Shown: positions 26,161-59,421, counted from the first letter of the stretch. The stretch is 64,000 nt of DNA from an uncultured Gemmatimonadales bacterium (GCA_963779755.1 CAVZZO010000001.1:416001-480000), one strand, 5' to 3'. The notes: generated by a model not told the origin, from the sequence alone. A program made the numbers and translations.

Positions 26161-26309
26161 ATCCGGAGGTGACCGTATGTCCAATGCCGGACAACCGTCC
26201 CGGCAGCCATCTCGTTCCGTTCTGGAACTTTTTCCGACCACGTCTCGTCTGACATGAGTGGAAGGCCCTGCCTTTCGACAGCCTATCACGCTCTCGCCGG
26301 AGTCCCTAC

Positions 26310-26516
26310 ATGCTCAAGCCGGTCCTTCAGGTTGCCGGAGGTGCCGCCGTCGCCGTCCTGCTCTGGAAGCTTGCCGCCGTTCTGCTGCTTCCGCTTCTGG
26401 GCATTGCGGCGGGTATCCTGGTGCTTCTGGTGAAGATCCTCCTTTTCGGATTGGCTCTTCTGGTGGTCTGGCTCATGTACCGCTGGGTCACCAGAGCCTC
26501 TCGTCCGGCCGTCTAA
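26310..26516 (+). CDS. 68-aa hydrophobic membrane protein (paralog of 12085-12291)
   Basis: 39/68 identical by manual ungapped alignment to the 12085 product. Confidence 0.85.
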   Translation: MLKPVLQVAGGAAVAVLLWKLAAVLLLPLLGIAAGILVLLVKILLFGLALLVVWLMYRWVTRASRPAV

Positions 26517-26770
26517 GCTGGACATTCCGCCCATCCCCCGGCGCTTCTGACCGTGCGCCGGGGCCTTTCCGGTCATGCCCTAGCGATTACCGGTCCCTTC
26601 CCCGTATCGTACACATTCTCCAGAACCAGATCACACCGTCCGGATACCGCCTCGCCGCGGCTTCCGGCATATCACGAGATCCGGCCAAGTCGGGGATTCG
26701 ACCTGACCGACTCTGACCGATCTCACGAGCTTTGACTTCGTGAGCGTGCAGGCCATCCCGAGGAGGCGGT

Positions 26771-29470
26771 GTGTCGGATGTGCTGACCAGGCTGCAATCC
26801 GCGCTGGCCGACCGTTACACCATCGAGCGTGAGCTCGGTGCCGGCGGCATGGCCACGGTGTACCTGGCGCGCGATCCCAAGCACGATCGTGATGTCGCCA
26901 TCAAGGTGCTGCGCCCCGAACTCTCGGCCGTGATCGGCGCCGAGCGATTCCTGCGCGAGATCAAGACCATTGCCAACCTGCAGCACCCGCACATCCTGGG
27001 GCTGATCGACTCGGGTGATGTCGACGGGACCGCCTACTACGTGATGCCGTTCGTGGAAGGCGAATCGCTGCGAGACCGCCTGACGCGTGAAAAGCAGCTA
27101 CCCATTCCCGAGGCCGTCCGCATCAGCACCGAGGTGGCCAGCGCTCTCGACTACGCCCACCGCCACGGGGTGATCCACCGCGACATCAAGCCCGAGAACA
27201 TCCTGCTCCATGACGGGCAGGCGCTGGTGGCGGATTTCGGCATCGCGCTCGCCGTGAGCCGTTCCGATGGCGGCACCCGCATGACCGAGACCGGCATGTC
27301 GCTGGGCACGCCGCACTACATGAGCCCCGAGCAGGCCATGGGCGAGCGCGACCTCGACGCCCGCACCGACGTCTACGCGCTGGGCTGCGTGCTCTACGAG
27401 ATGCTCACCGGCGACCCGCCGTTCGATGCCTCCTCCGCCCAGGCGATCGTCGCCAAGGTGATGACGGAAAAGCCGGCGCCGCCCTCGCGGGCCCGCGAGA
27501 CGGTTCCCGACGCGGTCGAGGATGCGGTACTCACCGCGCTGGCCAAGATCCCCGCCGACCGCTTCGCCACCGCCGCCGAGTTCGCGGGGGCGCTGGAGGG
27601 ACGCGGCACCGGGGCCCGACGCATCTCGGGAGCGCGGCGCGCCACGCACACCGACCGCCGGGCGCTGTATGCGCTGGCTGCCCTCGCCCTCATCCTGGCA
27701 GTGGTTGCGATCGTGGGCTGGAGCCGTGCGGCCGGTCGCACGACCGGCGGTGACGGCCCCCTGGCCTACCATATCCACCTCACCCCGAGCGAGTCCGATG
27801 CCGGCTTCGTCGCGAACCAGTTGGCCGTGAGCGCCGACGGCAGAGTCATCGTCTACAGCGACACGGTCGGTGGGACGCGACAACTGTGGGTCAAGGAGCG
27901 CGGCGTTGCCGACCCGCGTTCGATTCCCGGCACCGAGGGAGCGTCGGGGCCGACCCTCTCACCGGACGGGCGTGCGGTCGCTTACACCGCCGGCGACCAG
28001 CTGCGGCGCATCTCGATCAACGGTGGGGCCTCGGCGCTGCTCTCCGATTCGGCCGTGGTCCCCTCCGTCTCCACCAGCGGCGCGTGGCTGGACAACGGGA
28101 CCATCGTTTTTCTCGGCGGCTCGGCAGCCATCCTGTACGTGGTGGCCGATACCGGCGGGGTGACCCGGCGCCTGGCGACCGCGGACCAGTTGTTCGGCTG
28201 GCCGACATCCATCGCCGCCGTACCCGGTCACGATGCCGTCGTGGTCTCGTCCTGCGACATCGGCGGCTGCAGCACGCCGGTCATCTCCCTGGTGCGCCTC
28301 GATCCGGTCACCAGGAAGCAGATCCTCCCGGGCACCAGTGGCGCCTGGCCGGTGGGCGGCGGCCGCATTCTCAGCCTCCTGGCCGACGGCAGCCTCTTCC
28401 TGGCCAGCTTCGACCCGACCTCCGGCGCTATCGGAGAGGGCACGCCCGTCGCCACCGGGATCGCCGTGACCGGACGCGGCCCCGAAGTCGCCATTGGCCT
28501 CGACGGGGTGATGGTCGCGGGAATGGGCGGCGGAGAGACCTTCACCAACAAGAGTCATTTCGTGTTCGCAGGTCTCGACGGGACCACCCGGACCATCGAC
28601 TCCACCTGGTCGGGGACCTTCGCCAACAACAGCCGGCTGGACCTCTCCCCCGATGGACACCGGCTGCTCTTCTCCCAGATCGAGCCGGACGGCGTCCACT
28701 ACGGCCTCTACACCAAGCCGTATCCCGACGGACCGGCGACGCTGTTCAACTTGATGGGGACGCAGAGCTCGCGTGCGGTGTGGTCCCCCGATGGCCGGCG
28801 GATCGCCTGGGTTTCGGTGGACTCGAACAACCACGCCGCCGTCTGGGAGCAGGCGGCCGACGGCTCGGGACGCCCCACCCTGCTGGTGGACGACCCGCGC
28901 GGCGTGTATGAGATCAACTTCAGTCCCGACGGACGGTGGCTGCTATACCGAACCGACGACGTCGCCGCCGGCAACGGCGACATCTACGCCCGTCGTACCA
29001 GCGGCGACACGTCGTCGATCCCGATCGCCGCGAGCCCGGCGGAGGAAACCGGGGCGGCCGTCTCGCCCGACGGTCGCTGGGTGGCCTATGCCGAGAAGAT
29101 CGGCGCCGGCAAGGAGATCATCGTCCGGCCGTTCCCGGACGTGGCCGGCGGGCGGGTGCAGGTCTCGAACGGCGGCGGCCAGGAGCCGCTCTGGAGCCGG
29201 GACGGCCGAACGCTCTACTATCGCCAGGCCAGACAGGGACAGATCATCGCCGCCACCATGGACACCGACGGCAGCTTCCCCGCCAGCGGCCGCTCCGTCG
29301 TCTGGCAGGGAGAGGCGGACGAGTACTGGGAGAACGACGATACCCGGCAGTACACCCTGACGCCCGACGGCAAGGGATTCCTGCTGATGCGCCGTATCCG
29401 GACGGCGGCGGGTGCCAAGCCGATGCATCTGGTGCTCCGCGAGCACTTCGTCCCCACGGAGGATCGCTGA
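26771..29470 (+). CDS. Array kinase 1: Ser/Thr kinase - TM - propellers
   Basis: GAGGAGG SD, GTG start; full kinase motifs; TM; SPDG repeats. Confidence 0.95.
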   Translation: MSDVLTRLQSALADRYTIERELGAGGMATVYLARDPKHDRDVAIKVLRPELSAVIGAERFLREIKTIANLQHPHILGLIDSGDVDGTAYYVMPFVEGESLRDRLTREKQLPIPEAVRISTEVASALDYAHRHGVIHRDIKPENILLHDGQALVADFGIALAVSRSDGGTRMTETGMSLGTPHYMSPEQAMGERDLDARTDVYALGCVLYEMLTGDPPFDASSAQAIVAKVMTEKPAPPSRARETVPDAVEDAVLTALAKIPADRFATAAEFAGALEGRGTGARRISGARRATHTDRRALYALAALALILAVVAIVGWSRAAGRTTGGDGPLAYHIHLTPSESDAGFVANQLAVSADGRVIVYSDTVGGTRQLWVKERGVADPRSIPGTEGASGPTLSPDGRAVAYTAGDQLRRISINGGASALLSDSAVVPSVSTSGAWLDNGTIVFLGGSAAILYVVADTGGVTRRLATADQLFGWPTSIAAVPGHDAVVVSSCDIGGCSTPVISLVRLDPVTRKQILPGTSGAWPVGGGRILSLLADGSLFLASFDPTSGAIGEGTPVATGIAVTGRGPEVAIGLDGVMVAGMGGGETFTNKSHFVFAGLDGTTRTIDSTWSGTFANNSRLDLSPDGHRLLFSQIEPDGVHYGLYTKPYPDGPATLFNLMGTQSSRAVWSPDGRRIAWVSVDSNNHAAVWEQAADGSGRPTLLVDDPRGVYEINFSPDGRWLLYRTDDVAAGNGDIYARRTSGDTSSIPIAASPAEETGAAVSPDGRWVAYAEKIGAGKEIIVRPFPDVAGGRVQVSNGGGQEPLWSRDGRTLYYRQARQGQIIAATMDTDGSFPASGRSVVWQGEADEYWENDDTRQYTLTPDGKGFLLMRRIRTAAGAKPMHLVLREHFVPTEDR

Positions 29471-32136
29471 TGGCTCCGGGTGGAATCGACCGCCTGAGCG
29501 CTGCCCTGGCCGGCCGCTACCGTCTCGAGCGCGAGCTGGGTCAGGGAGGGATGGCCACGGTCTATCTGGCCGAGGATCTCAAGCACGACCGGCAAGTGGC
29601 CATCAAGGTGCTCCGGCCGGAGCTCGCCGCGGTGATCGGTGCCCAGCGCTTTCTGGCCGAGATCAAGACCACGGCCAACCTGCAGCACCCCCATATCCTG
29701 GCCCTGTTCGATTCGGGCGAGGTGGACGGCACCGTCTTCTATGTGATGCCGTTCGTGGAAGGCGAGTCACTGCGCGACCGGCTGGCGCGTGAGCACCAGC
29801 TGCCGGTCGCCGACGCAGTACGCCTCGCCACCGAGGTCGCGAGCGCCCTCGATTATGCCCATCGCCACGGGGTGATCCACCGCGACATCAAGCCCGAGAA
29901 CATCCTGCTCCATGACGGGCAGGCGCTGGTGGCGGATTTCGGCATCGCGCTCGCCGTGAGCCGTTCCGATGGCGGCACCCGCATGACCGAGACCGGGATG
30001 TCGCTGGGCACGCCGCACTACATGAGCCCCGAGCAGGCGATGGGCGAGCGGGAGATCACCGCCCGGACCGATGTTTACGCCCTGGGCTGCGTGCTGTACG
30101 AGATGCTGGTGGGCGAGCCGCCCTTCTCCGGTCCCACGGCGCAGGCGATCATCGCCAAGGTGATGACCGCGACCCCCGAGCCGGTCACCACCTACCGGAC
30201 GACTGTGCCGCCGCCGGTCGAGGACGCCGTGCATACCGCGATCCAGCGTCTGCCTGCCGACCGCTTTGCCACGGCGAAGGAGTTCGCGGAGGCGCTGGCG
30301 GGCGACGGCTCGGCGCCCCGTCGCACCAGCGGGATAGTGCGAGACCGGCCAGCCTCCACGGCGCGCTGGCTCCGCGACTGGCGCAGCATCGCGGCACTGG
30401 CGGCGGTGGCGGTCCTCGCGGTCTGGGGAATGGTCGCCGGCGGTGCTGCTCCAGCGGCAATCGACGAAAGTCACAAGGAGTACCTGAGCTTCCCGGACTC
30501 CCTCGCACCAGTCTCGGTCGTCGGACGCACCTTCGCCATCTCCCCCGATGGCCGCAATGTCGTGTTCCCCACTGCCGGTGCAGCGGGCAGCGGATCGACG
30601 ACCCACCTGCTGCTCAAGCGGCCCAACCAGCTCGACCCCGTTGCGATTTCGGGCACCACCGATGCCCGGTGGCCGGAGTTCTCGCCGGACGGCTCCCAGT
30701 TGGCCTACGTGCGCTCGGTGTTCGCCCAGGGTGCGCTCCAGACCATTCCAGTTTCTGGCGGGACACCCCGCACCTTGGTGGCCGACTCGGTCTTCATCGG
30801 TGCCTCCTGGGGTGATGACGGCTACATCTACTACTCCAGGCTGGGCGGGATCTTCCGGATACCGGGTGAAGGCGGGCGCATCGACACCCTGACGCGTCCT
30901 AAGGCCAGCGGGGCCACCACCGACTGGTGGCCGGTGGCCGTGCCGGGCGGTCGCGGGGTGGTGTTCACCCGGCAGCGTGGCTCCGGCCCTCTCGAGTTGC
31001 TCGCACTCCCCGCGGGGAGCTCCGAGCCGCGACAACTGACTGAGGGCATCCCCGTCGCCATCCTCCCCTCCGGCACATTCATCTTCTCGACCGACGGCCG
31101 ACAGTTGTACGCGGTGGCCTTCGATCTCCAGCGGCTCGAGCTCCGCGGCAATCCGGTGTTGCTCGCCTCCGACTTGCGGAACAACGGCGTCACCATTGCC
31201 GATGCCGCCTTCTCGGCGAGCGGCTCGATGCTTTACTGGAGCGACGGCGGCGCCGCGCGGAAGGTCTACTGGGTGGACCGGAGTGGTGTCGCCCGGCAAA
31301 TCGACCCCGCCTGGCGGACGCCCGTGGCCGAGTCCCCGGCCATTTCTCCCGACGGTCGCCGCCTGGCCATGTCGGTGGGGCATGGGCTCGAGGTGAAGCA
31401 GCTGGACGAGGGGCCCGCCACGCAGGTGGTCCGCCCGATCGGCGGACGGAACAACCTGAGGCCGGCGTGGCACCCGGACGGGCGGTCGTTGCTGTTCTAT
31501 CGCAGTGGCGGCAAGGACTCGGTGCTGCAGGTGCGCGACGACGGAGTCGGTGACCCGACCCCGACGGTGGATGAGCCCCGGGGGGTCGCCGATGCGATCT
31601 GGTCGCCCGATGGCCGATGGATGGTCTTCCGCACCTCGGTGGAAGCGGAGAACGGGTCGGACATCTACGCCAAGCTGGTGGATAGCGACGAGCCCGCGAT
31701 CCCGATCGTCACCTCCCCTTCCTCCGATGTCACGCCGGAGTTCTCGCCGGATGGGAAGTGGTTGGCCTATGCCTCGAGCGAGTCGGGCATCTTCGAGGTG
31801 TACATCCGGCCGTTTCCCAATGTCGAGGACCGCCGGATTCAGGTCTCGGCACGAGGCGGGCGGCAGCCGCGCTGGTCGCGTCGGAGCGGCGAACTCTTCT
31901 TCGTGGGGCCGGAGGAGATGCTGATGTCGGTGCGTATCCGGACCTCCCCGACTCTCGAGGTCGGGACGCCAGTGCCGCTGTTCCGGGTCACACCATACTA
32001 CATCAGCACCGCGTTCCACAAGAACTACGACGTGGATGCCGACGGGCAGCGATTCGTGATGGTCGGAACCGGCGGCATCCCGCAGGTCATCCGGATCGAC
32101 AACTGGCTGGTTGATTATCCGGAGCTCCGCAAATGA
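29470..32136 (+). CDS. Array kinase 2: Ser/Thr kinase - TM - propellers
   Basis: ATG overlaps the previous stop (TGATG); MAPGGIDRLSAALAGRY; full kinase motifs. Confidence 0.95.
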   Translation: MAPGGIDRLSAALAGRYRLERELGQGGMATVYLAEDLKHDRQVAIKVLRPELAAVIGAQRFLAEIKTTANLQHPHILALFDSGEVDGTVFYVMPFVEGESLRDRLAREHQLPVADAVRLATEVASALDYAHRHGVIHRDIKPENILLHDGQALVADFGIALAVSRSDGGTRMTETGMSLGTPHYMSPEQAMGEREITARTDVYALGCVLYEMLVGEPPFSGPTAQAIIAKVMTATPEPVTTYRTTVPPPVEDAVHTAIQRLPADRFATAKEFAEALAGDGSAPRRTSGIVRDRPASTARWLRDWRSIAALAAVAVLAVWGMVAGGAAPAAIDESHKEYLSFPDSLAPVSVVGRTFAISPDGRNVVFPTAGAAGSGSTTHLLLKRPNQLDPVAISGTTDARWPEFSPDGSQLAYVRSVFAQGALQTIPVSGGTPRTLVADSVFIGASWGDDGYIYYSRLGGIFRIPGEGGRIDTLTRPKASGATTDWWPVAVPGGRGVVFTRQRGSGPLELLALPAGSSEPRQLTEGIPVAILPSGTFIFSTDGRQLYAVAFDLQRLELRGNPVLLASDLRNNGVTIADAAFSASGSMLYWSDGGAARKVYWVDRSGVARQIDPAWRTPVAESPAISPDGRRLAMSVGHGLEVKQLDEGPATQVVRPIGGRNNLRPAWHPDGRSLLFYRSGGKDSVLQVRDDGVGDPTPTVDEPRGVADAIWSPDGRWMVFRTSVEAENGSDIYAKLVDSDEPAIPIVTSPSSDVTPEFSPDGKWLAYASSESGIFEVYIRPFPNVEDRRIQVSARGGRQPRWSRRSGELFFVGPEEMLMSVRIRTSPTLEVGTPVPLFRVTPYYISTAFHKNYDVDADGQRFVMVGTGGIPQVIRIDNWLVDYPELRK

Positions 32137-34796
32137 GCGAGGACATGGCCACGCTTGCGGCCGCCCTGGCCGACCGCTACACCCTCGAGCGGGAGCTGGG
32201 CGCCGGCGGGATGGCCACGGTCTATCTGGCGCACGACCTCAAGCACGACCGCCAGGTGGCCATCAAGGTGCTCCGGCCGGAGCTGGCCGCCGTGATCGGG
32301 GCCCAGCGCTTCCTGGCCGAGATCAAGACCACGGCCAACCTGCAGCACCCCCATATCCTGGCCCTGTTCGACTCGGGCGAGGTGGGCGGCACCGTCTTCT
32401 ACGTCATGCCGTTCGTGGAAGGCGAGTCGCTGCGCGACCGGCTCACCCGCGAGCACCAGCTGCCGGTGGGCGACGCGGTGCGCATCGCCACGGAGGTGGC
32501 GAGCGCCCTCGATTATGCCCATCGCCACGGGGTGATCCACCGGGACATCAAGCCGGAGAACATCCTGCTGCACGACGGGCAGGCGCTGGTGGCCGACTTC
32601 GGGATCGCGCTGGCGGTAAGCCGTTCCGAGGGCGGTACCCGGATGACCGAGACCGGGATGTCGCTGGGCACGCCGCACTACATGAGTCCGGAACAGGCCA
32701 TGGGGGAGCGGGAGATCACCGCCCGGACCGATGTTTACGCCCTGGGCTGCGTGCTGTACGAGATGCTGGTGGGCGAGCCGCCCTTCTCCGGTCCCACGGC
32801 GCAGGCGATTATCGCCCGGGTGATGACCGAAGAGCCGCGCTCGCTCACTATCCAGCGGCGGTCGGTTCCCGAGAACGTCGAAGCAGCGGTCTTTACCGCG
32901 CTGGAGAAGCTGCCGGCGGACCGCTTCGCATCGGCCGCCGAGTTCGCCGCCGCCCTGGCCTCTGACGGGATCACCACCCGGCGGGTCACCCGCGCGATGC
33001 CTTCGGTACGGCAGCGCGGACTGCGCTCGCGCTGGATCGCGCCGGCCGCCGTCGTGGTGCTCGGCGTCGCCGCGCTGTGGGGCTGGCTCCGTCCCGGTCC
33101 CGCCCAGGTTCCCAGCCGGCAGCGGGTGGTCCTCTGGCGCACCACGGCCGCGGATTTCCTCAGTCCCAGCGCCCTGCGCATCGAGTCCCGGGTCGCCATC
33201 TCGCCCGACGGGGCCTGGATCGTCTTTGCCGACTCGGCCGGCGGCGACACCCAGCTCTTCCTCAAGGGACGCAACGAGCGCAGTGCCACGCCGATTGCGG
33301 GCACTGAGGGCGCCGCCAGTCCTTTCTTCTCGCCCGATGGAGAGTGGATCGGGTATCTGACCCACGGCAAGCTCCGCAAGGTGCGCGTCTCCGGCGGCGG
33401 CTCGATTCAGCTTGCCACCACCGGAAACACGACATATGAGGTTGGCACCTGGCTGGACGACGGGACCATCGCCTTTACCGACAACAGCGGCGGCATGTCC
33501 CGCGTCCCGGCCGAAGGTGGAGCGGTCACGGTCCTGCGCGCGCCGAGGAAGGACCACCGCGACGATCCCTCGGCTCTCTCCCCACTGCCGGGGAGCCGGG
33601 GCGTGCTCTTTACCGGCTGTCCCGGCAATTGCGCCAGCGCCTCGGCGCTGTACGCCTACGACATCCGGCGCGATACCACGCTGCTCCTGGTGCCCGATGC
33701 GGCGGGTGGGTGGTATTCGCCCACCGGCCACCTGCTCTACGTCAGCCGGGCTGGCGGGCTGTTCGCGGTGGGATTCGACCTGAAGCACATGAAGGTTACC
33801 TCGGGTGCCGTGTCCGTCGCCGACAGCGTGGCGCCGAATGGGCTGACCTTGTCCGCTTCCGGCACGGCGTTGCTCACCTTCGGCACCGAGAACTTCGACG
33901 GCTCGACGCTGGACTGGGTGTCCCGCGATGGAACCCAGGAGCCCTTCGCTCCCGACTGGACGGGAAACTTCGAGTATCCCGCCCTGGCGCCCGACGGCAG
34001 AACCGTCGCGGTGAGTATCCGGAATGGTGTGACGAAGCTCTGGATCCGCCGCGCGGATGGATCGCGGATCCGCGTAACGCACGGCGACCTGGGGAGCTGG
34101 CGGCCCAGTTTCAGCCCGGACGGGCGCAGCTTCGCCTTCATTACGGCCGACGGCGCCACATCCGATTCGGGGGCCAAGGACGCGTATCTCAGCCCGGCCG
34201 ACGGCAGCACCCCGCCGCGGCTCCTGCTCGATATGGTACCGGGGATCTGGGAGGTCGAGTTCAGCCGGGATGGGCAGTGGGAACTGTTCCGAACCGACGA
34301 TGCGGCATCGTACGGGGTGTTCTACGCCCGCCGCCTGCACGGCGATACCACCCTGCGCCTGATCCATTCGGACAGCAGCTTCAACACTCAGATGGCGCTT
34401 TCGCCCGACAGCAAGTGGCTGGCCTTCACCTCCGACCATTCAGGGCACTCGGAGGTCTATGTCGCGTCGTTCCCCGACATGCAGATCAAGTATCCCGTGT
34501 CGCAGGGCGGCGGGACCGAGCCTCGCTGGGCCCATAGCGGGCGGGAGCTCTTCTTCAAGAGCCACGGCCAGCTGATGAGCCTTCCGGTGAGGCCGGGCGC
34601 CGGGTTCTCCCCGGGGAGTGCCCGGCCGCTCTTTCCGGTCGGGCAATACGCCGATGCCATCAACCGGCAGCAGTATGACGTCAGTCCGGACGATCGCCGC
34701 TTCCTGATGATTCGCCGCCCGGCCAGCAGTGGCCGGCAGGAGGTGGTACTGGTGGAGCATTTCTTCGAGGACCTCAGGTCCAAGGTGAAGCCGTGA
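32133..34796 (+). CDS. Array kinase 3: Ser/Thr kinase - TM - propellers
   Basis: ATGA overlap; full kinase motifs; TM; SPDG repeats. Confidence 0.95.
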   Translation: MSEDMATLAAALADRYTLERELGAGGMATVYLAHDLKHDRQVAIKVLRPELAAVIGAQRFLAEIKTTANLQHPHILALFDSGEVGGTVFYVMPFVEGESLRDRLTREHQLPVGDAVRIATEVASALDYAHRHGVIHRDIKPENILLHDGQALVADFGIALAVSRSEGGTRMTETGMSLGTPHYMSPEQAMGEREITARTDVYALGCVLYEMLVGEPPFSGPTAQAIIARVMTEEPRSLTIQRRSVPENVEAAVFTALEKLPADRFASAAEFAAALASDGITTRRVTRAMPSVRQRGLRSRWIAPAAVVVLGVAALWGWLRPGPAQVPSRQRVVLWRTTAADFLSPSALRIESRVAISPDGAWIVFADSAGGDTQLFLKGRNERSATPIAGTEGAASPFFSPDGEWIGYLTHGKLRKVRVSGGGSIQLATTGNTTYEVGTWLDDGTIAFTDNSGGMSRVPAEGGAVTVLRAPRKDHRDDPSALSPLPGSRGVLFTGCPGNCASASALYAYDIRRDTTLLLVPDAAGGWYSPTGHLLYVSRAGGLFAVGFDLKHMKVTSGAVSVADSVAPNGLTLSASGTALLTFGTENFDGSTLDWVSRDGTQEPFAPDWTGNFEYPALAPDGRTVAVSIRNGVTKLWIRRADGSRIRVTHGDLGSWRPSFSPDGRSFAFITADGATSDSGAKDAYLSPADGSTPPRLLLDMVPGIWEVEFSRDGQWELFRTDDAASYGVFYARRLHGDTTLRLIHSDSSFNTQMALSPDSKWLAFTSDHSGHSEVYVASFPDMQIKYPVSQGGGTEPRWAHSGRELFFKSHGQLMSLPVRPGAGFSPGSARPLFPVGQYADAINRQQYDVSPDDRRFLMIRRPASSGRQEVVLVEHFFEDLRSKVKP

Positions 34797-45478: not shown

Positions 45479-47889
45479 GTGGAGCACCCCCGGGTCTGAT
45501 CGCAGCTCTGGCTGACCGCTACACCATCGAGCGCGAGCTGGGCGAGGGCGGCATGGCGACCGTCTACCTCGCCACCGACCTCAAGCATGGGCGACAGGTT
45601 GCTATCAAGGTGCTCAAGCCGGAGCTTGCCGCCGTCCTCGGCGCCGAGCGGTTCCTGGCGGAGATCAAGACGACGGCCAATCTGCGGCACCCGCATATCC
45701 TGCCGCTGTTTGACAGTGGCCGGGCCACCGTTCCCCCTCTCCCCGGTGGGGAGAGGGGGACAGGGGGTGAGGTCCTCTACTATGTTATGCCGTTCGTGGA
45801 GGGTGAGTCGCTGCGCGACCGGCTGACCCGCGACCGGCAGCTTCCGATCGGGGAGGCGCTGCAGATCTCCCGGGAGGTGGCCGACGCCTTGGGCTACGCC
45901 CACAGCCGGGGCATCGTGCATCGGGATATCAAGCCGGAGAATATCCTGCTGGAGAACGGCCACGCGGTGGTGGCCGATTTCGGCATCGCCCGCGCCGTCA
46001 GTTCCGCGGGCGGCGACCGGATCACCCAGACCGGCATGGCGGTCGGCACGCCGCTCTACATGAGCCCGGAGCAGGCGGCCGGTTCCGGCGATCTGGACGG
46101 CCGGAGCGATCTCTACAGCCTGGCCTGCGTGCTGTACGAAATGCTGGCCGGCGAGCCGCCCTTTACCGGCGCGACCCCGGCGGTGATCACCCGGCAGCAT
46201 ATGATTACCGAGGCAGCGCCGGTCACTAACAAGCGGCCGGCGGTACCCGCGCATGTGGCCGGCTCGCTGGCCCGCGCCCTGGCCAAGGACCCGGCCGACC
46301 GGTTCAACCCGGTGGCGCAGTTCGCACAGGCGCTCACCGATGGCCCAGCCGCCCCGGCAGCAACCGCGACGGCACCGGCCGACTCCTCCCGCTCACCGCG
46401 GCGCCGGTGGTTCGCCCTGGCGGCCGGCGGGGTGCTGGTCGTTGCCGCGGGCGCCTGGCTGTTGACCAGGACACTCCGGCAGGGAGGGGCCACAACAGCC
46501 GGGGTCATCCGGTCCATCGCGGTCATGCCGCTCGACGACTACTCGGCCGACTCGACCCAGGCGTACTTCGCCGAGGGAATGACCGACGAGCTTACCACCG
46601 ACCTGGCGAGCATCAGTTCGCTGCGGGTCATCTCGCGCGGGTCGGTCATGCAGTACGCCGGCGGCAACCGTCCTCCCGCCCCGGAGATTGCCCGGTCGCT
46701 GAACGTGGATGCGATTGTGGAAGGCTCCGTCACCCGCGCGGGCGACAGGGTGCGGATCACCGCCCAGCTGATTGACGCGCGGGCCGACCGTCATCTCTGG
46801 GCCCAGAGTTTCGAGCGGCAGTCGAGCGACGTGCTGGCGCTGCAGGCCGAGCTGGCCTCGGCTATCGCCAGCGCCATCAACGCGCGGATCACCCCCGCCG
46901 AGCAGACCCGGCTGGCCGCGGCACCGACGGTCGATCCGGCGGCGCACGACGCCTACCTGCGCGGCCGGTACTTCTTCGCCCGGCCGAACGATGAAAATCT
47001 GGAGAAGGCCATCGCGCAGTTCAACCAGGCGGTCAGTCTGAGTCCCGATTTCGCGCCGGCCTGGTCCGGCCTGTCCGACGCGTATCTGTGGGCGGCGTTC
47101 AACGAGGGGTTCATCAGTGCTCGCGAGGCCGGCCCCAGAGCCAGGGAGGCGGCCGAGCGTGCGGTGCAGCTCGACAGCACGTTGGCGGAGGGTCACACCT
47201 CGCTCGGGACTTATCTGGCGTGGTTCGCGCACGACTGGACCGGGAGTGAGCGCGAATTGCGCCGCGCCATCGCGCTCAATCCCAACTACGCCTTCGCGCA
47301 CGACCAGTTCGGACTGATCCTCAGTATCCTGGGGCGATTTGACGCGGCGATCGCCGAGGGGAAGCGGGCCATGGCGCTCGACCCCCTGTCGCCGTCTATC
47401 CTGATTGATGCCATGGTGGCGTTTGTTTACCGGCCCGATGTGCCGGCCGCCACCGCGCTGGCCCAACGCACCAGCGACCTCGATCCCACCTTCTTCTTTC
47501 CCTATTCGCTCATGGCCAAGCTCGACGTCCAGCTGGGGAAGGCGCGGGAGGCGGTTTCCCTGCTGGAGAAGGCCCGCACCATGGGGGCCCCCTCGTTTGT
47601 GACCGGCGAGCTGGCCTATGCCTACGGGATGACCGGCGACCAGGCCAGGGCCGAGGCGACACTCGCCGATCTGAAGAAGATGTCGCGCAGCGGCGAGGGG
47701 TTGCCTTATGACCTGGCGCTCTACTACCTGGGGCAGCGCAATACGGCCCGCACGCTGGACTACCTGGAGCAGGCGTTTGCCGCCGATGCCCAATCGCTGG
47801 TGTGGCTCAAGGAGGATACCATCTACGATCCGCTACGGCAGAACCCGCGGTTCATCGCGCTCATGCAGAAGATGCACTTCACCTCATGA
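45475..47889 (+). CDS. Array kinase 8: Ser/Thr kinase - TM - TolB-N - TPR, with in-frame hairpin insert
   Basis: ATGA overlap at 45475; SIAVMPL...YFAEGMTDEL; TPR helices. Confidence 0.95.
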   Translation: MSGAPPGLIAALADRYTIERELGEGGMATVYLATDLKHGRQVAIKVLKPELAAVLGAERFLAEIKTTANLRHPHILPLFDSGRATVPPLPGGERGTGGEVLYYVMPFVEGESLRDRLTRDRQLPIGEALQISREVADALGYAHSRGIVHRDIKPENILLENGHAVVADFGIARAVSSAGGDRITQTGMAVGTPLYMSPEQAAGSGDLDGRSDLYSLACVLYEMLAGEPPFTGATPAVITRQHMITEAAPVTNKRPAVPAHVAGSLARALAKDPADRFNPVAQFAQALTDGPAAPAATATAPADSSRSPRRRWFALAAGGVLVVAAGAWLLTRTLRQGGATTAGVIRSIAVMPLDDYSADSTQAYFAEGMTDELTTDLASISSLRVISRGSVMQYAGGNRPPAPEIARSLNVDAIVEGSVTRAGDRVRITAQLIDARADRHLWAQSFERQSSDVLALQAELASAIASAINARITPAEQTRLAAAPTVDPAAHDAYLRGRYFFARPNDENLEKAIAQFNQAVSLSPDFAPAWSGLSDAYLWAAFNEGFISAREAGPRAREAAERAVQLDSTLAEGHTSLGTYLAWFAHDWTGSERELRRAIALNPNYAFAHDQFGLILSILGRFDAAIAEGKRAMALDPLSPSILIDAMVAFVYRPDVPAATALAQRTSDLDPTFFFPYSLMAKLDVQLGKAREAVSLLEKARTMGAPSFVTGELAYAYGMTGDQARAEATLADLKKMSRSGEGLPYDLALYYLGQRNTARTLDYLEQAFAADAQSLVWLKEDTIYDPLRQNPRFIALMQKMHFTS
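45732..45760. repeat. REP-like palindrome inside kinase coding sequence (copy 2)
   Basis: TCCCCCTCTCCCC-GGT-GGGGAGAGGGGGA. Confidence 0.85.
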
Positions 47890-50534
47890 CCGATACTTCC
47901 GGGATCGCCGCCGCGCTGGCCGGTCGCTACCGGATCGAGCGTGAGCTGGGGCAGGGAGGCATGGCCACGGTGTATCTGGCCCAGGACCTCAAGCACGACC
48001 GGCAAGTGGCTATCAAGGTGCTCCGGCCGGAGCTGGCCGCGGTGATCGGGGCGCAGCGCTTCCTGGCCGAGATCAAGACCACCGCCAATTTGCAGCATCC
48101 GCACATCCTGGCGTTGTTCGATTCGGGCGAGGTCAACGGCACCGTCTTCTACGTGATGCCGTTCGTGGAGGGTGAATCGCTGCGCGACCGCCTGGTCCGC
48201 GAGCGCCAGCTGCCGGTCGCCGAGGCGGTGCGCATCGCCACCGAGGTCGCGGCCGCGCTCGACTATGCCCATCGTCACGGCGTGATCCACCGGGACATCA
48301 AGCCGGAGAACATCCTGCTCCACGACGGCAGCGCCCTGGTGGCCGACTTCGGCATCGCGCTGGCGGTGAGCCGGTCCGACGGAGGCACCCGGCTGACCGA
48401 AACCGGGATGTCGCTGGGGACGCCGCACTACATGAGTCCCGAGCAGGCGATGGGCGAGCGCGAGATCACTGCCCGGACCGATATCTACGCCCTTGGATGC
48501 GTCCTGTACGAGATGCTGGGGGGAGAGCCGCCGTTCTCCGGACCGACGGCGCAGGCGATCATTGCCCGGGTCATGACGGAGGAGCCGCGGTCGCTTACTG
48601 CCCAGCGCCGCTCCGTCCCCGACTACCTCGAGGCGGCGGTCTTTACCGCCCTGGACAAGCTGCCGGCGGATCGATTCGCCACCGCGGCGGAATTCTCGGC
48701 AGCGCTGGCGGGCCAGGACCCGGGCATCCGCACCACGGCGCGCCGGCCGGCCGCGATGGCCGGATCCGGGCCATGGCGGCGCGTCAGCCTGCTGCTTGGG
48801 GTGGCGACGATCGCGCTGGCCGGACTCGCCTTCTGGGCACTGACGCGCTCATCCGGACGTGCCGCACCGACGGTCTATGATGTCGGCCTCCCAGACAGCG
48901 CCAGGATGAATCTCGTCAGCAGCCGGTCCCGCATCGGACCGTACGGCGCGCAGGTGCGCAATCTTTCGGTGGACCCTGCGGGCAATTTCGTCGTCTACGC
49001 GGCGACCCGCGGTGATTCCACCTCGCTCTGGGTCCGCAGTCTTCGCACGGCCGAGGTTCGTGAGTTGCCGGGAACCGAGGGTGGCACCGGGCCACGGATC
49101 TCTCCCGACGGGGAGCAGGTCGCGTACTTCAATGACGACCGGATGATGGCGATCCCGATCGACGGCTCGGAGCCGCGCCTGCTGATGATGGCCAGCAGTG
49201 GCGCGATGATCGACTGGACGTCCACCAGCCAGTTCGTCACCGTCGACAACGACGGCTATCGCTTCAACCGCTTCGATCCGAAGACCGGTTCCACCCAGTC
49301 GGCCACGATCGACCGCTGCGTGTTCGGGGTGTGGGTTCCCGAATCCCGTGAGCTGCTCTGCTCGTTCAACGGCATTGCCCAGACCATCGAGCCGGAATCG
49401 AATGCCGTCACCACCATCCGCATCGCCAATCCCGACGGCTCGCCCGGCAACCCAGCGGCCGGCAGCGCCTTCCGCATGGTCGAGGGGAGGTACCTCCTCT
49501 GGCTGGCCACCGACGGCAACCTCGTCGCTGCCACCTACGATCCGGCCCGCCACCTTGCCGGGCCGCCGACCCGAATGCTTGCCGGCATCCGGCGCGAGGC
49601 GCTGGGCGAGGGGCAATACGACATCTCGGCGGATGGGACGCTGGTCTACGCTCCGGGGCTCGACGCGACCATTGGTCGTCTCGTGCGGTTTCACCCGGGT
49701 CGGAAGATCGAACCGCTGCCGATCGAGGGTGCCGACTACCAGCGCTACGACCTCAGCGACGACGGTCGCTGGCTTGCCGCGGTCACTCCGGGCAGCGATG
49801 CCATGGAGCTGCGCATTTATGACCTGCAGAACGGCCAGCGATCGACCTGGCTGCGCGCCGAAGCGATCCGCCATGCCATGTGGAATCCCGGCGGCGACCG
49901 GCTCCTGGTCGCCGCCCAGCACGATTCGACCTGGGCCCTGCTCCGCGGTTCTCCGGGATCGGGACAGCCCGCCGACACGCTGGCCACCTGGGGTCCGGGA
50001 GAGGGCTACCTCGACCCGATCGGCTATCCCTTCGATTCCCTCGCCATCGCGCTTGACTGGAGCTCGGGCGTCGTGGCCTCCTTCGACCCGCGACGCAAGG
50101 CACCGGTCTTCGATACCGTCCTGACCGGAGCGCGCTTCCCGAGCGTCGCGCCGGGCGGCCACCTGATCACCTATCAGACCGTGGACCAGAGTCGCATCGT
50201 CGTCACCACCTTCCCCGAGGCGAGCCGCCGGTGGCAGGTGGCCACGCTGGGGGTCGAGCCGATCTGGCTCTCCGACACGGAATTGCTTTATCGCTTCGGC
50301 GCGAGCTGGTATCTGGTCCGGGTGAACCCGACGACCGGCGAGCCCCAGGGCGCCGCCACCTTCTGGGGCAGGGATCTCAGGTTCTCGGACACCTCGGGCT
50401 GGTCCAATCGTCCCGACCATACCGGCGGCGTGATCTACGTGGAGAGCCCTCAGCAGCCGGATCCCGGTTACCTGCGCGTGATCCCCGGCTGGGTCGATCA
50501 GATGAAGCGCGCGGTAGCGAAGGCAAGTCGATGA
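47886..50534 (+). CDS. Array kinase 9: Ser/Thr kinase - TM - divergent propellers
   Basis: ATGA overlap at 47886; full kinase motifs; TM; ISPDG repeats. Confidence 0.95.
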   Translation: MTDTSGIAAALAGRYRIERELGQGGMATVYLAQDLKHDRQVAIKVLRPELAAVIGAQRFLAEIKTTANLQHPHILALFDSGEVNGTVFYVMPFVEGESLRDRLVRERQLPVAEAVRIATEVAAALDYAHRHGVIHRDIKPENILLHDGSALVADFGIALAVSRSDGGTRLTETGMSLGTPHYMSPEQAMGEREITARTDIYALGCVLYEMLGGEPPFSGPTAQAIIARVMTEEPRSLTAQRRSVPDYLEAAVFTALDKLPADRFATAAEFSAALAGQDPGIRTTARRPAAMAGSGPWRRVSLLLGVATIALAGLAFWALTRSSGRAAPTVYDVGLPDSARMNLVSSRSRIGPYGAQVRNLSVDPAGNFVVYAATRGDSTSLWVRSLRTAEVRELPGTEGGTGPRISPDGEQVAYFNDDRMMAIPIDGSEPRLLMMASSGAMIDWTSTSQFVTVDNDGYRFNRFDPKTGSTQSATIDRCVFGVWVPESRELLCSFNGIAQTIEPESNAVTTIRIANPDGSPGNPAAGSAFRMVEGRYLLWLATDGNLVAATYDPARHLAGPPTRMLAGIRREALGEGQYDISADGTLVYAPGLDATIGRLVRFHPGRKIEPLPIEGADYQRYDLSDDGRWLAAVTPGSDAMELRIYDLQNGQRSTWLRAEAIRHAMWNPGGDRLLVAAQHDSTWALLRGSPGSGQPADTLATWGPGEGYLDPIGYPFDSLAIALDWSSGVVASFDPRRKAPVFDTVLTGARFPSVAPGGHLITYQTVDQSRIVVTTFPEASRRWQVATLGVEPIWLSDTELLYRFGASWYLVRVNPTTGEPQGAATFWGRDLRFSDTSGWSNRPDHTGGVIYVESPQQPDPGYLRVIPGWVDQMKRAVAKASR

Positions 50535-53491
50535 GCCTGGAGCACCTTTCCACCGCCTTGGCCGGCCGCTACCGGATTGAGCGGGAACTGGGTGCCGGCG
50601 GGATGGCGACCGTCTACCTCGCGGCCGACCTCAAGCACCACCGCCAGGTCGCCATCAAGGTGATGCACGAGGAGCTCTCCGCGGCGATCGGGGGCGAGCG
50701 GTTCCTCCGTGAGATCACCACGATCGCCAGGCTGCAGCATCCGCACATCCTGCCGCTGATCGACTCCGACAGAGCCGGAGGCATGCTCTACTACGTGGCA
50801 CCCTATGTCCGCGGCGAGACCTTGCGGGAGCTGCTGACCAGGGAGGGCCGGCTCGCCCCCGACCGGGCCGCGGCGCTGGCCCTCGAGATCGCCGATGCCC
50901 TCGCCTATTCGCATCGCGAGGGCGTGGTGCATCGCGACATCAAGCCGGAGAACATCCTGCTCCAGGAAGGGCACGCCGTCCTCGCCGACTTCGGCGTGGC
51001 CCGCGCCCTGACCGCCGCCGGTGGGACCACCATGACGCAGGCGGGGTTTGCCGTGGGGACCCCGGCGTACATGAGCCCCGAACAGGCGACGGCGTCCCCG
51101 GTGATCGACGGGAAGGCGGACATCTACGCCCTGGGCTGTGTGCTGTTCGAGATGCTGGCCGGTCAGCCCCCGTTCACCGGCAGCAACCTCCAACAGGTTG
51201 TCGCCGCCCATGTCACCACCCCTGCGCCGGCGATCGGCAGTATCCGCGACGACACTCCGCCCGCCCTCGCCGACCTGGTGACGGCCTGTCTCGCCAAGGA
51301 TCCGACGGCCCGGCCGTCCGCCGCCGTGGTCGCCGAGCGGCTCAAGACCACCACGTCGGGCGTATCGGCTGCATCCCGCGCCGGTGGGCGGGGGCGCCTG
51401 ATCGCCCTCACGGGAGCCGCATTGGCACTCCTGGCTGCCGGCGGGTGGTGGGCCCTGGGACGCAAGGCCACCTCGTCGACATCCATCAGCGGCGACGCCT
51501 CCGAGATCGCGGTCATGCCCCTCTCGGCGATCTCCGACAGCTCGCTGGCGCGGCTGGGCCAGGATCTCGTGGTGACACTCAGCACCACGCTCGATGGCGT
51601 CGGCGAGTTGCACACCGTCGATGCGCCGACGCTGCTGCTCAACACCCGGGATGCCCCCTCGCCGCTCCCTCTCGACCGGGCTCGCGAGATCGCGACCCGC
51701 CTCGGCGCCGGCAGTGTCCTCACGGGAACGTTGATTCACGAATCGGGACAGGTGCGGGCGGCGGTCGCGCTCTATCGGGTCGGTGAGGACACCGCGATCG
51801 CCCGGGCCAGCACCCTGGCACTCGCGGAGGATATCTCGGCCCTCACGGACTCCCTCACGTGGCAGGTGCTCCGGCAGGTCTGGCGCGGCGGGGCACCGCC
51901 GTCGCCGGTGCTGGCCGGGCTCACCACCTCCTCGTTCGAGGCGCTGCGGCACTTCCTCGACGGCGAGCGACACTTCCAGCAGCTCGACGTGGACGCGGCG
52001 ATTGCCGAGTATCGCCGCGCGTTCGAGCTCGACTCCAACTTTGTCCAGGCCTACCTGCGCTACGATGCCGCGCGGACCTGGAGCCTTGAGAACGCCGACT
52101 CTGCCGCTCATGCCCGCCTGCTGGCCCTCGCCGGCCGGCTGCCGGACCGCGAGCGGCTCTGGCTCGAGGCTACCGAACAATCCGGGCCGCTGCCTGAGCG
52201 GGTGGCCCGCTGGCAGGAGCTGATCCGACGCTACCCCGACTATCCGCCGGTCCTGATGTCCGGCGTGGACGGCATCGTGCACTCCGGCCCGGTCTATGGA
52301 ATCGACCTGGCCGGGGCGCTCCCCGTGCTCGCGCGGCTGGCCCGGCTCACGCCAGACAATGCCGACGTCTGGATGCACAAGGGCGCCGTGGAGGAAGCAC
52401 TCGGGAAGTCGGCAGAGGCGGCGCAGTCCTTCCAGCGGGGAGCGACAGCCGCACACGGGTTCTTCGGAGAGTTGCTGGCGACCACGGCCGCGATCAGCCG
52501 CTCGCTCGCCACGCCCGGCCAGCCGTTGCCCGATGATTGGGGTAACGCGGCGGTCCGCGCCTATGCCGACCTGCCCGCCGGAAACCGCCAGTTGGTGCTC
52601 AGCGGCCTGCTGTCCTTCGTCGATGGTCGGATTCCCGAGCGACTGGCGCTGGTCGAGAAGGCACAGCGCGACGGGCGCTACCAGGGAGAGGTCCTGACGA
52701 GTTCGCGGTTTGGCGAGGGGGTGCTGCGCATCGCCCGGGGAGACTGGACCGGCGGAGTGGCGGCGCTCCGCCAATACGAGGCCGCCAACGGTTCGGTCAG
52801 CGACCGACTCAGCGCCGCACGCCTCGCGACCGTCGGCGCCTGGCTCGGGATGGTCGATCCGGCCGTGGCCGCTGCTGCCATCGGTCGCGTCAGGGCCATG
52901 CCCGATGTGGAGCAGCAGGCCACCGACCGGATCGAACTGCAGTGGCTCGCGGGACTGCTGGCGATCGTGACCGGCGATGCGCCGGCCGTGGAGCGCACCA
53001 GCGCGACCCTGCGCAAGGAATCCAATCCGGTCGCGGCTCATGCCGCGGCATCCCTCCGGGCCGAGTGGCTCGTCAAGGAGGGCGCCGAGGGCGCGGCGGA
53101 CTCCGTTCAGGCGGTCAGCGATGCCATGATGCGAGAGGGGAAGTATCTCTTCGTGGCGGAGGTCGTCAATCGTTTCGTGATCGCCCGCGCGCTGCGCAAT
53201 CGTGGGCAGCCCGCCGCGGTCGAGCGCTACCTGATGTGGACCGACGCGCAGGTCAACACGGCCAGGACCTGGAGCATCCGTTTCGCTCTCGGCCCACTGG
53301 CGCAATTCGAGCGTGGCATGGCACTGGAAGAGGCCGGCAATCACGCCGGCGCTGTATTGCAGCTCTCCCGCTTCCTGGCCACGGTTGACCCGTCAGCGAC
53401 CGGGCAGCAGACGATGATCACCGAGGCCAGGCGTGTGGTGTCGGAGCAGGTCGGCGCCGACAGTGCCCCGAAACAGGGACTCGCCCCGTGA
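50531..53491 (+). CDS. Array kinase 10: Ser/Thr kinase - TM - TolB-N-like - long helical/TPR region
   Basis: ATGA overlap at 50531; full kinase motifs; IAVMPL; TTSSFEALRHFLDG. Confidence 0.93.
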   Translation: MSLEHLSTALAGRYRIERELGAGGMATVYLAADLKHHRQVAIKVMHEELSAAIGGERFLREITTIARLQHPHILPLIDSDRAGGMLYYVAPYVRGETLRELLTREGRLAPDRAAALALEIADALAYSHREGVVHRDIKPENILLQEGHAVLADFGVARALTAAGGTTMTQAGFAVGTPAYMSPEQATASPVIDGKADIYALGCVLFEMLAGQPPFTGSNLQQVVAAHVTTPAPAIGSIRDDTPPALADLVTACLAKDPTARPSAAVVAERLKTTTSGVSAASRAGGRGRLIALTGAALALLAAGGWWALGRKATSSTSISGDASEIAVMPLSAISDSSLARLGQDLVVTLSTTLDGVGELHTVDAPTLLLNTRDAPSPLPLDRAREIATRLGAGSVLTGTLIHESGQVRAAVALYRVGEDTAIARASTLALAEDISALTDSLTWQVLRQVWRGGAPPSPVLAGLTTSSFEALRHFLDGERHFQQLDVDAAIAEYRRAFELDSNFVQAYLRYDAARTWSLENADSAAHARLLALAGRLPDRERLWLEATEQSGPLPERVARWQELIRRYPDYPPVLMSGVDGIVHSGPVYGIDLAGALPVLARLARLTPDNADVWMHKGAVEEALGKSAEAAQSFQRGATAAHGFFGELLATTAAISRSLATPGQPLPDDWGNAAVRAYADLPAGNRQLVLSGLLSFVDGRIPERLALVEKAQRDGRYQGEVLTSSRFGEGVLRIARGDWTGGVAALRQYEAANGSVSDRLSAARLATVGAWLGMVDPAVAAAAIGRVRAMPDVEQQATDRIELQWLAGLLAIVTGDAPAVERTSATLRKESNPVAAHAAASLRAEWLVKEGAEGAADSVQAVSDAMMREGKYLFVAEVVNRFVIARALRNRGQPAAVERYLMWTDAQVNTARTWSIRFALGPLAQFERGMALEEAGNHAGAVLQLSRFLATVDPSATGQQTMITEARRVVSEQVGADSAPKQGLAP

Positions 53492-53611
53492 CCCTCGGCA
53501 CGGCGGCATCATCTACCGGAAGGGCCGAAGGCCACCTCGGTGAACTATCTTCGGGTGATGCCGGATTGGATCGCGAAAATGAAGCGGCTGGCCGACGAGG
53601 CAAACCGGTGA
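53488..53611 (+). pseudogene. Scar of a deleted 11th array kinase gene
   Basis: GTGACCCTCG head, then HGGIIYRKG/PKATSVNYLRVMPDWIAKMKRLADEANR*, homologous to the end of kinase 9. Confidence 0.75.
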
Positions 53612-54612
53612 AGCACCTACTGCAGCGAGCGCTCCTGGCGCTCGCGACCGTCATGATCCCCGCTGCCGTGACGGCCCAGACAGCCATGTCCGGCAACCCC
53701 GTCCTGCCGGGCTGGTACGCCGATCCCGAGGCCCACGTCTTCGCCGGTGAGTACTGGATCTATCCCACCACCTCGGACCGTTACGACAAGCAGGTGTACC
53801 TCGACGCCTTTTCCTCGCCCGATCTGATCACCTGGACGAAGCATTCCCACGTGCTTGATACCGCCAATGTGAAGTGGGCGCACCGCGCGATGTGGGCGCC
53901 GTCCATCGTGGAGAAGGACGGCTGGTACTATCTCTTCTTTGGCGCCAACGACATCCAGAACGACAGTACCCTGGGCGGTATCGGCGTGGCGCGGAGTCGT
54001 TCCCCCGGCGGGCCGTTCACCGACTGGCTGGGCCATCCGCTGATCGACAAATTCCATAACGGCGCCCAGCCCATCGACCAGATGGTCTTCCGGGACGTGG
54101 ACGGCAGCTATTACATCGTCTATGGCGGCTGGGGACACTGCAATATCGCCCACCTCAACGCCGACTTCACCGGCTTCGTTCCGTTCGCCGACGGCACCAG
54201 GTTCAGGGAAATCACGCCCAACGGGTATGTCGAGGGCGCCTTCATGCTGATCCGTGGCGGCAAGTACTACTTCATGTGGTCGGAGGGCGGCTGGACGGGG
54301 CCCGACTACGCCGTGGCCTATGCCATCGGTACCTCGCCCTTCGGGCCGTTCGAGCGGGTGGGCAAGATCCTGCAGCAGGATTCCACCGTGGCTACCGGTG
54401 CCGGGCACCATTCGGTGCTGCACGCCCCGGGTTCGCCGCACTGGTACATCGTCTATCATCGCCGCCCGCTGGGGGAGACCGATCGTGATCATCGGGCGGT
54501 GAGTATTGAAGAGCTGCATTTTGATTCGGCGGGCCGGATCCTGCCGGTGAGGATCACGTTCACCGGGGTGGCGGCCGATCCGTTACACGCGGCTCCACAC
54601 GGCGGACGCTGA
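53608..54612 (+). CDS. Exported glycoside hydrolase family 43
   Basis: Signal peptide from GTG 53608; NPVLPGWYADP, WAPS, QPID, VEG, GHHS motifs; the frame is also open from 53488. Confidence 0.92.
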   Translation: MKHLLQRALLALATVMIPAAVTAQTAMSGNPVLPGWYADPEAHVFAGEYWIYPTTSDRYDKQVYLDAFSSPDLITWTKHSHVLDTANVKWAHRAMWAPSIVEKDGWYYLFFGANDIQNDSTLGGIGVARSRSPGGPFTDWLGHPLIDKFHNGAQPIDQMVFRDVDGSYYIVYGGWGHCNIAHLNADFTGFVPFADGTRFREITPNGYVEGAFMLIRGGKYYFMWSEGGWTGPDYAVAYAIGTSPFGPFERVGKILQQDSTVATGAGHHSVLHAPGSPHWYIVYHRRPLGETDRDHRAVSIEELHFDSAGRILPVRITFTGVAADPLHAAPHGGR

Positions 54613-57399: not shown

Positions 57400-57595
57400 A
57401 TGGCCGATGTCCTGACCAGGCAGCCCCCACCGGCTCTTCCACACGGATGCCGCAACCGGCGTCGACTACGCGCGGTACGCTGTGGCGGCCGACGGACGAT
57501 TTCTCATGGTGGGTCAGGGTGAGGGCGCAGCACGCCCCGCGCTGGTGCGGGTGGAAGGGTTCGTGAAGGACCTGCTGGAGCGGCCAGGCAGGTAG
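57400..57595 (+). pseudogene. Internally deleted kinase-propeller gene (head MADVLTR + out-of-frame tail)
   Basis: Tail GSPHRLFHTDAATGVDYARYAVAADGRFLMVGQG...* matches the end of gene 15904. Confidence 0.85.
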
Positions 57596-59143: not shown

Positions 59144-59421
59144 AAGGTGCTGCGGCCGGAGTTGGCGTCGGTCCTTGGCCCCGCCCGGTTCCTGGCCGAG
59201 ATCAAGACCACGGCCAGCCTGCAGCACCCGCACATCCTCCCCCTGCATGATTCGGGTGAAGTGAACGGTACCGTGTTCTACGTCATGCCCTTTGTGGAAG
59301 GCCGATTCCGATGGCCAGGCTGGATGACCCCGCGCTGGTGGCCGAGCGCCACACCTTCGCGGTCGGCGCGGGCCGTTTCTTCTTCAGTCTCTACGACCGG
59401 CAGAGTGATATCTGGACAGGC
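59144..59421 (+). pseudogene. Fused fragments of further kinase gene(s): kinase N-lobe piece plus sensor C-terminus
   Basis: KVLRPEL...YVMPFVEG (59144-59302), then in another frame RLDDPALVAERHTFAVGAGRFFFSLYDRQSDIW, like the end of gene 13036. Confidence 0.8.

Follow-up and report, generated by a model that had tools for sequence, protein, structure and literature searches.

The stretch of DNA analysed here, a 64,000-nt window of the genome of an uncultured Gemmatimonadales bacterium (GCA_963779755.1; positions 416,001–480,000 of contig C1 in a 4.23-Mb, four-contig genome, G000), carries a row of ten consecutive plus-strand genes for receptor-like Ser/Thr kinases, named K1 to K10 (26771–53491; numbering follows the window, Table 1). 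Open reading frames (ORFs) and their translations agreed with the original prediction that no intergenic DNA separates these genes and that each of the nine internal stops overlaps the next start, as TGATG at the first junction and as ATGA or GTGA at the remaining eight. Stop/start overlap is common in this genome, but nine consecutive overlaps are not: 616 of 1942 close co-directional gene pairs (32%, from a crude gene caller) overlapped by 1 or 4 nt, and on the assumption of independent junctions, which does not hold here, nine out of nine would have a probability of about 3e-5. The row is likely the densest part of a Gemmatimonadales receptor kinase island in which sensors have been exchanged by homologous recombination via the kinase halves of the genes.

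Intact AIK, HRDIKP(E/D)N and DFG motifs were present in all ten translations, and all matched the Pfam Pkinase model (E 5e-45 to 3e-54). A transmembrane (TM) helix after the kinase, claimed for every gene, was recovered in nine at a Kyte-Doolittle value of at least 1.6, while K4 reached only 1.42. The kinase had also been called constant; it was conserved, but the term overstated a pairwise identity of just 52–90% within the row. The C-terminal modules were those expected, namely six propeller types (K1–K5, K9), three TolB-N/TPR types (K7, K8, K10) and one FGE-like domain with a hydrolase (K6). Pfam placed PD40 in K1–K5, FGE-sulfatase and dienelactone hydrolase in K6, TPR in K7, K8 and K10, and TolB_N in K8; the C-terminal part of K9 had no Pfam match, matched a TolB propeller model (E 2e-9) and was 22–27% identical to those of K1–K3. 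Across the row these parts were 22–32% identical or unalignable, with the exception of K4 and K5 (58%, with 85% in the kinase). K9 and K3 shared 89–90% of their kinase and 22% of their sensor, and the kinase of K7 grouped with the propeller kinases (73% to K2 and K9) rather than with its own module class.

Kinase and sensor halves of these genes have different histories. A total of 316 kinase matches was reduced to 228 distinct full-length genes from 66 genomes by dropping partial, frameshifted, open-ended and duplicate genes, and these fell into 116 sensor families at a threshold of at least 50%. For the propeller genes (155, after removal of three duplicates from genome G016), the nearest kinase lay in the same genome in 36 of the 124 cases counted and the nearest sensor in 2, against 3.6 at random. 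The counts were 29 and 2 of 109 when G000 was left out, and 16 and 2 for 50 further genes. The two trees were not congruent, as 27 of 35 supported kinase splits conflicted with the sensor tree, compared with just 6 of 64 between two halves of the sensor itself. Monophyly of the four TolB-N/TPR kinases was rejected (p-AU, approximately unbiased test, 0.002), with a p-AU of 0.011 for K7 plus K8 (quick tree, LG+G4). Gene order was not fixed either: 44 of 47 adjacent sensor-family pairs were distinct, and two of the three repeats were duplicate segments of G016. The sensors are old, conserved families common to several genera; orthologs of the K3 and K8 sensors, for example, were found at 72% (locus L066) and 69% (L098, with a kinase just 61% identical). 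Separate histories and scrambled family order are what the proposed modular receptor repertoire implied.

Traces of recombination were found in the DNA itself. K1 and K2 shared an identical tract of 134 nt, with a silent-identical run of 43 codons (codons 131–174; p ≤ 1e-5). In genome G021, two genes were 99.4% identical across 787 nt of their kinase parts but only about 40% identical past codon 270, and the K3 ortholog of L066 showed the same pattern of a kinase tract with a break at the kinase end. Loci L105 and L097 shared one sensor at 92–100% over 1.7 kb, compared with about 85% in the kinases; they were about 85% alike upstream and 75% downstream, and the slot before the common sensor held different sensors.

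The extent of the exchanged unit was approached through 105 junctions, classed as overlap or gap (contig C16 of G016 was dropped as a duplicate). Junction class tracked the sensor family of the upstream gene, with 68 of 91 pairs alike against 45.1 after shuffling (p = 3e-4). It did not track that of the downstream gene (21 of 44 alike, 21.8 after shuffling, p = 0.63). A −4 junction was kept in six of six members of family F3 and five of five of F1, and the families that came next differed wherever known. Because the junction follows the upstream and not the downstream family, the exchanged unit probably consists of a sensor, its junction and the start of the next kinase. Whole-gene moves would need the exact overlap to be made anew each time, whereas crossovers inside the kinase would carry it along. 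Tracts ending at the kinase end, discordant trees and the junction test support the suggestion that kinase DNA supplies the homology for gain, loss and shuffling. Site-specific recombination was considered and rejected, since no integrase lies nearby (five tyrosine recombinase matches in the genome, the nearest at C1:690,864, about 150 kb from the island) and the break coincides with the end of homology.

Several observations weigh against extensive or recent exchange, or against parts of its evidence. Fourfold-site differences between row kinase pairs were 0.31–0.58, with saturation at about 0.57, so that most pairs are near saturation. In the silent-run test, 2 of 300 G000 pairs reached p ≤ 0.001 and nine reached p ≤ 0.01; within the row only K1/K2 survived correction (K2/K3, p = 0.0018), and none of 45 pairs in genome G012 reached p ≤ 0.01. 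The titles of L105 and L097 bear the same sample prefix, which makes chimerism possible, and identical tracts could in part be assembly or polishing artefacts. Junction class is partly set by the upstream stop codon, and relatedness contributes to it too. The genomes are related and their rows not independent, the kinase trees are short and FastTree supports lenient. Finally, inheritance of whole genes is common: in 78 of 147 cases, the gene with the orthologous sensor was also the one with the nearer kinase. Given this concordance and the near-saturated silent sites, exchange appears real but occasional; within the row most of it is old, with one clear tract, K1/K2.

Selection on the sensors was assessed from the ratio of nonsynonymous to synonymous substitution rates (dN/dS) in 12 pairs. 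Values were 0.02–0.35 for sensors, below 0.36 in all 12 pairs, and 0.09–0.22 for kinases, with synonymous sites near saturation, which indicates purifying rather than diversifying selection on the sensor sequences. The likeness to eukaryotic receptor-kinase clusters that had been proposed thus held for the modular repertoire, but its diversifying flavour was missing, given these ratios and the age of families found across genera.

This layout characterises the order and is not peculiar to one genome. Among the named loci found with K3, 66 of 68 were titled Gemmatimonadota, in line with the placement of G000 in Gemmatimonadales, and row-type kinases matched in 30 of 30 relatives (a tally that includes the unpublished G014). 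The exact pattern GGMAxVYLA, which misses variants, matched in 79 of the 84 genomes from this order (the unpublished G072 included) and in 2 of 36 from outside it, with 0–61 matches per genome and 35 in this one. Islands recur: 26 matches in 110 kb in G048, 14 in 80 kb in G062 and eight in 60 kb in G021. Of the kinase-kinase gaps below 300 nt (n = 126, this genome's nine included), 51 were −4 and two were −1. Ten was the longest strictly overlapped chain found and four the longest elsewhere, but many of the other loci are cut short by a contig or flank boundary. Relatives shared no fixed flanking genes; only scattered hydrolases recurred. Row-type kinases also occurred on short contigs titled Vicinamibacteria and Ilumatobacteraceae (L050, L079), by transfer or misbinning. 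In G016, contigs C2, C6 and C16 (L001–L008) held three copies, 90–97% alike and with frameshifts, of one array segment; these may be strain haplotypes or a recent duplication.

The sensor of K3 (about 560 aa, PD40/TolB-type) matched TolB by profile (E 5e-34). Its structural model (predicted local distance difference test, pLDDT, 89.8; 71 sequences) was nearly all beta, with about 48 strands, and its second half aligned to TolB propellers with Z 24–27; a Foldseek search with the whole sensor returned only generic double propellers (TM-score about 0.3). In our reading the model represents two six-bladed propellers. The best solved match of the kinase was PknB (E 1.4e-58), and that of the FGE-like part of K6 was 5nxl, a Ser/Thr kinase entry (E 6e-10). 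The K6 hydrolase sequence contains a GYSWG nucleophile motif, with a candidate Asp and His also discernible. K7 and K8 matched the CadC model (E 3e-10 and 2e-9) at scores far below its cut-off. An even number of Cys residues in 196 of 228 sensors, a charge bias (K/R higher before than after the TM helix in 120 of 216 proteins and lower in 52) and the likeness to TolB and CadC favour a sensor outside the membrane. Each gene would then encode a single-pass receptor with a PknB-like kinase inside and the sensor outside, and by analogy with PknD, ligand binding may drive dimerisation and autophosphorylation. Most likely the row would be a single operon whose receptors respond to peptides, glycans or envelope fragments outside the cell, through kinases with overlapping substrates, and the hydrolases in its neighbourhood point weakly to peptide or glycan ligands. 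Scans of 25500–45499 gave no promoter-like sites (shuffled mean 1.6) and five terminator-like sites (shuffled 5.3), both uninformative, and Rfam gave no matches. Whether the GH43 gene that follows is coupled to K10 is uncertain.

Table 1. Genes, relics and other features of the kinase row and its surroundings (window numbering).
Feature	Position	Strand	Description
Island kinase	1..2225	-	Cut by window start; 1054 aa in genome
Island kinase	13036..15705	+	Kinase-TM-propeller
Island kinase	15904..18588	+	Kinase-TM-propeller; L072 ortholog with sensor 90%, kinase 86%
Collapsed relic	18585..18938	+	Kinase-type start MSLDRLAA fused to propeller tail of ~105 aa
68-aa hydrophobic ORF	26310..26516	+	254 nt upstream of K1; no NCBIfam match
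K1	26771..29470	+	Kinase-TM-double propeller, 899 aa; GTG start preceded by GAGGAGG
K2	29470..32136	+	Kinase-TM-double propeller, 888 aa; start overlaps K1 stop as TGATG
K3	32133..34796	+	Kinase-TM-double propeller, 887 aa; six-bladed TolB-like propellers in sensor model
K4	34793..37414	+	Kinase-TM (weak)-propeller, 873 aa; sensor ortholog 74% in L072
K5	37411..40038	+	Kinase-TM-propeller, 875 aa; whole-gene paralog of K4
K6	40035..42956	+	Kinase-TM-FGE-like domain-alpha/beta hydrolase, 973 aa
K7	42953..45478	+	Kinase-TM-TolB-N/TPR, 841 aa; module matches part of CadC model
K8	45475..47889	+	Kinase-TM-TolB-N/TPR, 804 aa
K9	47886..50534	+	Kinase-TM-divergent propeller, 882 aa
K10	50531..53491	+	Kinase-TM-TPR-rich module, 986 aa
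GH43 glycosidase	53488..54612	+	GTG overlaps K10 stop; codon model favours ATG at 53653
Second relic	57400..57595	+	Kinase-type start MADVLTR; propeller tail in another frame
Broken copy of two kinase genes starting at 62186	57662..59415	+	Frameshift, two deletions
Kinase-TolB-N/TPR	59652..61898	-	No TM helix; 748 aa
Island kinase	62186..64000	+	Kinase-TM-propeller; cut by window end

The row forms the core of a 126-kb island (C1:415–541 kb) with 27 of the 66 kinase matches of the genome (2.0 expected). Intact genes account for 25 of the 27, and the other two come from a single broken gene. Past the window end, the island extends to C1:540,434. Six further kinase genes had been reported in the window, and all were found, although one is broken, one lacks a TM helix and the window ends truncate two others. 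The relic at 18585–18938 still shows ATGA coupling to the gene upstream, in keeping with exchange that preserves the junction, and the propeller tail of the second relic resembles, by eye, that of 15904–18588. The broken copy was 88.5% identical over 1475 nt to the genes from 62186 onwards, then 95% over 160 and 122 nt (the second gene). A short dead kinase-type start, MMLDRLAA (C1:480,882–480,940), separates the stop of the gene at 478,186 from the true next start. Ahead of the row, at 25600–25720, a short piece of PD40-like peptide is possibly one more relic (by eye; no tblastn match).

The absence of ECF, FHA or PP2C partners noted earlier extended to the whole island: profile searches of the genome found five FHA proteins, three PP2C and eight strong BTAD matches, all of them elsewhere, and three TIGR02999 ECF matches above cut-off plus eight weak ones, none in C1:415–541 kb. 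The three TIGR02999 factors adjoin divergent kinases elsewhere in the genome, and three BTAD regulators bear the same TolB-N/TPR module as K7 and K8. The hydrophobic 68-aa ORF has a 58% paralog at 12085–12291, likewise upstream of a kinase pair (13036–18588); as a conserved partner it was rejected for now, being absent from the other loci compared. Secreted hydrolases (penicillin amidase, S41, S8, GH43, fucosidase, amidohydrolase) are scattered through the island, an S9 gene lies just past its end, and one IS256-type transposase lies inside it. Several paralogous subtilase-family genes or pieces occupy the minus strand at C1:506,447–528,185 (L108, L109), with 92–94% DNA repeats and one member beside an IS256-type transposase, a second small expansion. 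Perfect 8-bp tandem repeats of CTTGCCGT were found at 57178–57389 (26.5 copies) and 62098–62154 (7.1 copies), and a degenerate one on the other strand at 11937–12016; they sit upstream of or between kinase genes, and the motif occurs in 18 genome bins of 500 nt. The region 5131–7334 is probably a decayed restriction-modification insert: it holds a helix-turn-helix gene, an ORF that was not classified, and pieces in different frames that look like a DNA methyltransferase and a restriction endonuclease. At 22412–25577, a histidine kinase that binds cyclic nucleoside monophosphates adjoins a fusion of a response regulator and a thioredoxin reductase.

In the mechanism that we propose, the kinase halves of about 800 bp would serve as direct repeats for homologous recombination, within the chromosome or with incoming DNA, with RecA, which the genome encodes, as the presumed agent. 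Such events would delete, insert or replace a unit comprising the kinase end, TM helix, sensor, stop/start junction and next kinase start, and would also convert adjacent kinases towards each other. As the junction travels with the sensor, exchanges would land in frame and keep the overlap, so that a gap-free chain of ten genes with unrelated sensors could form. A more far-reaching version, which we offer tentatively and consider rather less probable, is a cassette system free of any recombinase: the kinase coding sequence itself would be the recombination site, and more than 100 sensor families would form a pool of the Gemmatimonadales community that plugs into a co-translated row of interchangeable, cross-activating kinases with a common output.

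Exchange through kinase halves has to be weighed against plain birth and death by tandem duplication, in which whole genes duplicate, the kinase is constrained, sensors drift and the overlaps are those of any GC-rich operon. K4 and K5 do resemble such a whole-gene duplicate, and the rate of overlap among close gene pairs, the 78 of 147 genes in which kinase and sensor stay together and the near-saturated silent sites of the row all fit this explanation. Sensors nearer to other genera than to their own genome, tracts that stop at the kinase end and sensor classes that are not monophyletic on the kinase tree do not. Drift also fails to account for sensors of 22–35% identity beside kinases of 89–95%, because sensor dN/dS is close to that of the kinases. 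We therefore regard this explanation as improbable, and as the sole process it is already contradicted. A fast-diversifying, immune-like bank of receptors for phages, predators or competitors, driven by positive selection, would suit the large variable repertoire (116 families among 228 genes), the horizontal movement of a sensor seen in L105 and L097 and the role of PknS in resistance to amoeba predation (PMC13147305, available part). However, the low dN/dS in every sensor pair, neighbours identified as hydrolases and metabolic genes, and kinases that carry no effector domain make it quite unlikely.

There is also a slight chance that the row is an assembly artefact in which dispersed paralogs were merged via their similar kinase halves, as arrays in fragmented relatives often stop at contig ends and the G016 segment is present in three similar copies. 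Against this, no identical run found in the row exceeded 134 nt (the next was 104 nt), the ten frames are intact on a 2.37-Mb contig, the junctions fall beyond the repeated part and reappear elsewhere alongside the same sensor family, and islands recur on long contigs of other genomes. Contigs from four of 16 read runs were compared with 26601–46600, and among the 32 listed of more than 12,000 pieces one, from run X1, spans the K4/K5 junction (10 differences over 224 nt); runs X2 and X4 may come from the source study itself. The complete gene order rests on the assembly. Other kinase-half joints in the run contigs had short sides and 88% likeness and were set aside as kinases of other organisms.

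The row proteins appear from their sequences to be ordinary Hanks receptor kinases and not a new biochemical class. The available part of PMC1847690 describes Mycobacterium tuberculosis receptor kinases with an N-terminal kinase, one TM helix and a C-terminal sensor, activated by dimerisation, and the row proteins share this layout with PknB and PknD. The PknD ectodomain aligned to the K3 sensor model (Z 18.8, root-mean-square deviation 3.2, 234 residues), but the row sensor is about twice as long, is nearest to TolB and has no NHL match, whereas the PknD type is one NHL six-bladed propeller. M. tuberculosis has 11 kinases (PMC1847690, available part), whereas here a single island contains tens of paralogs whose sensors have been exchanged. 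PASTA kinases of the Stk1/PknB type also differ: NF033483 scored 265–321 bits in the eight array proteins scanned (cut-off 450), and Pfam found no PASTA repeats in any of the ten row proteins. K6 shares a kinase and an FGE-like domain with what we take to be chlamydial Pkn1, and adds a TM helix and a hydrolase. The module of K7 and K8 is similar to that of CadC, but is found here on kinases and on the three BTAD regulators.

In Xanthomonas PknS-EcfK, a transmembrane Hanks kinase provides the signal input (PMC13147305, available part); the same holds for ECF-kinase pairs of the TIGR02999 type, but the row has no adjacent ECF sigma factor. In polymorphic toxins, a conserved N-terminal part gives the homology for swapping a variable C-terminal part (PMC3482391, available part). 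The row units differ in being full genes, each with a kinase, whose variable part is a sensor (propeller, TPR or FGE/hydrolase), with neither immunity genes nor ORFs between them.

Integron cassette arrays consist of co-oriented units of variable order and content. The row resembles them in this, but has no nearby integrase and no intergenic room for attC, and its exchange seemingly proceeds via coding homology. Myxobacterial kinomes and plant receptor-like kinase clusters show lineage-specific expansion and domain shuffling, and such clusters are shaped by unequal crossing over and gene conversion; the row differs in its stop/start coupling and in sensors that move between species under apparent purifying selection. 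No paper was found whose title or opening lines of abstract describe such arrays, although a mention within a kinome survey or table is possible. The present analysis adds the test that the junction follows the sensor, together with the relics and a count across the whole order.

Soils and sediments harbour abundant Gemmatimonadota, a phylum that has barely been studied, and in the order treated here a single genome encodes up to about 60 kinases of this one type. Kinase-based orthology and short-read assemblies mislead at such islands. If sensors do swap via kinase halves, the perception of a cell would change in one recombination step, sensors could be gained or lost without new wiring, and the island would amount to a natural collection of binding domains, propeller and TPR alike, mounted on one shared chassis. 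Should the cassette version also be true, it would be the signalling counterpart of integrons and toxin cassettes.

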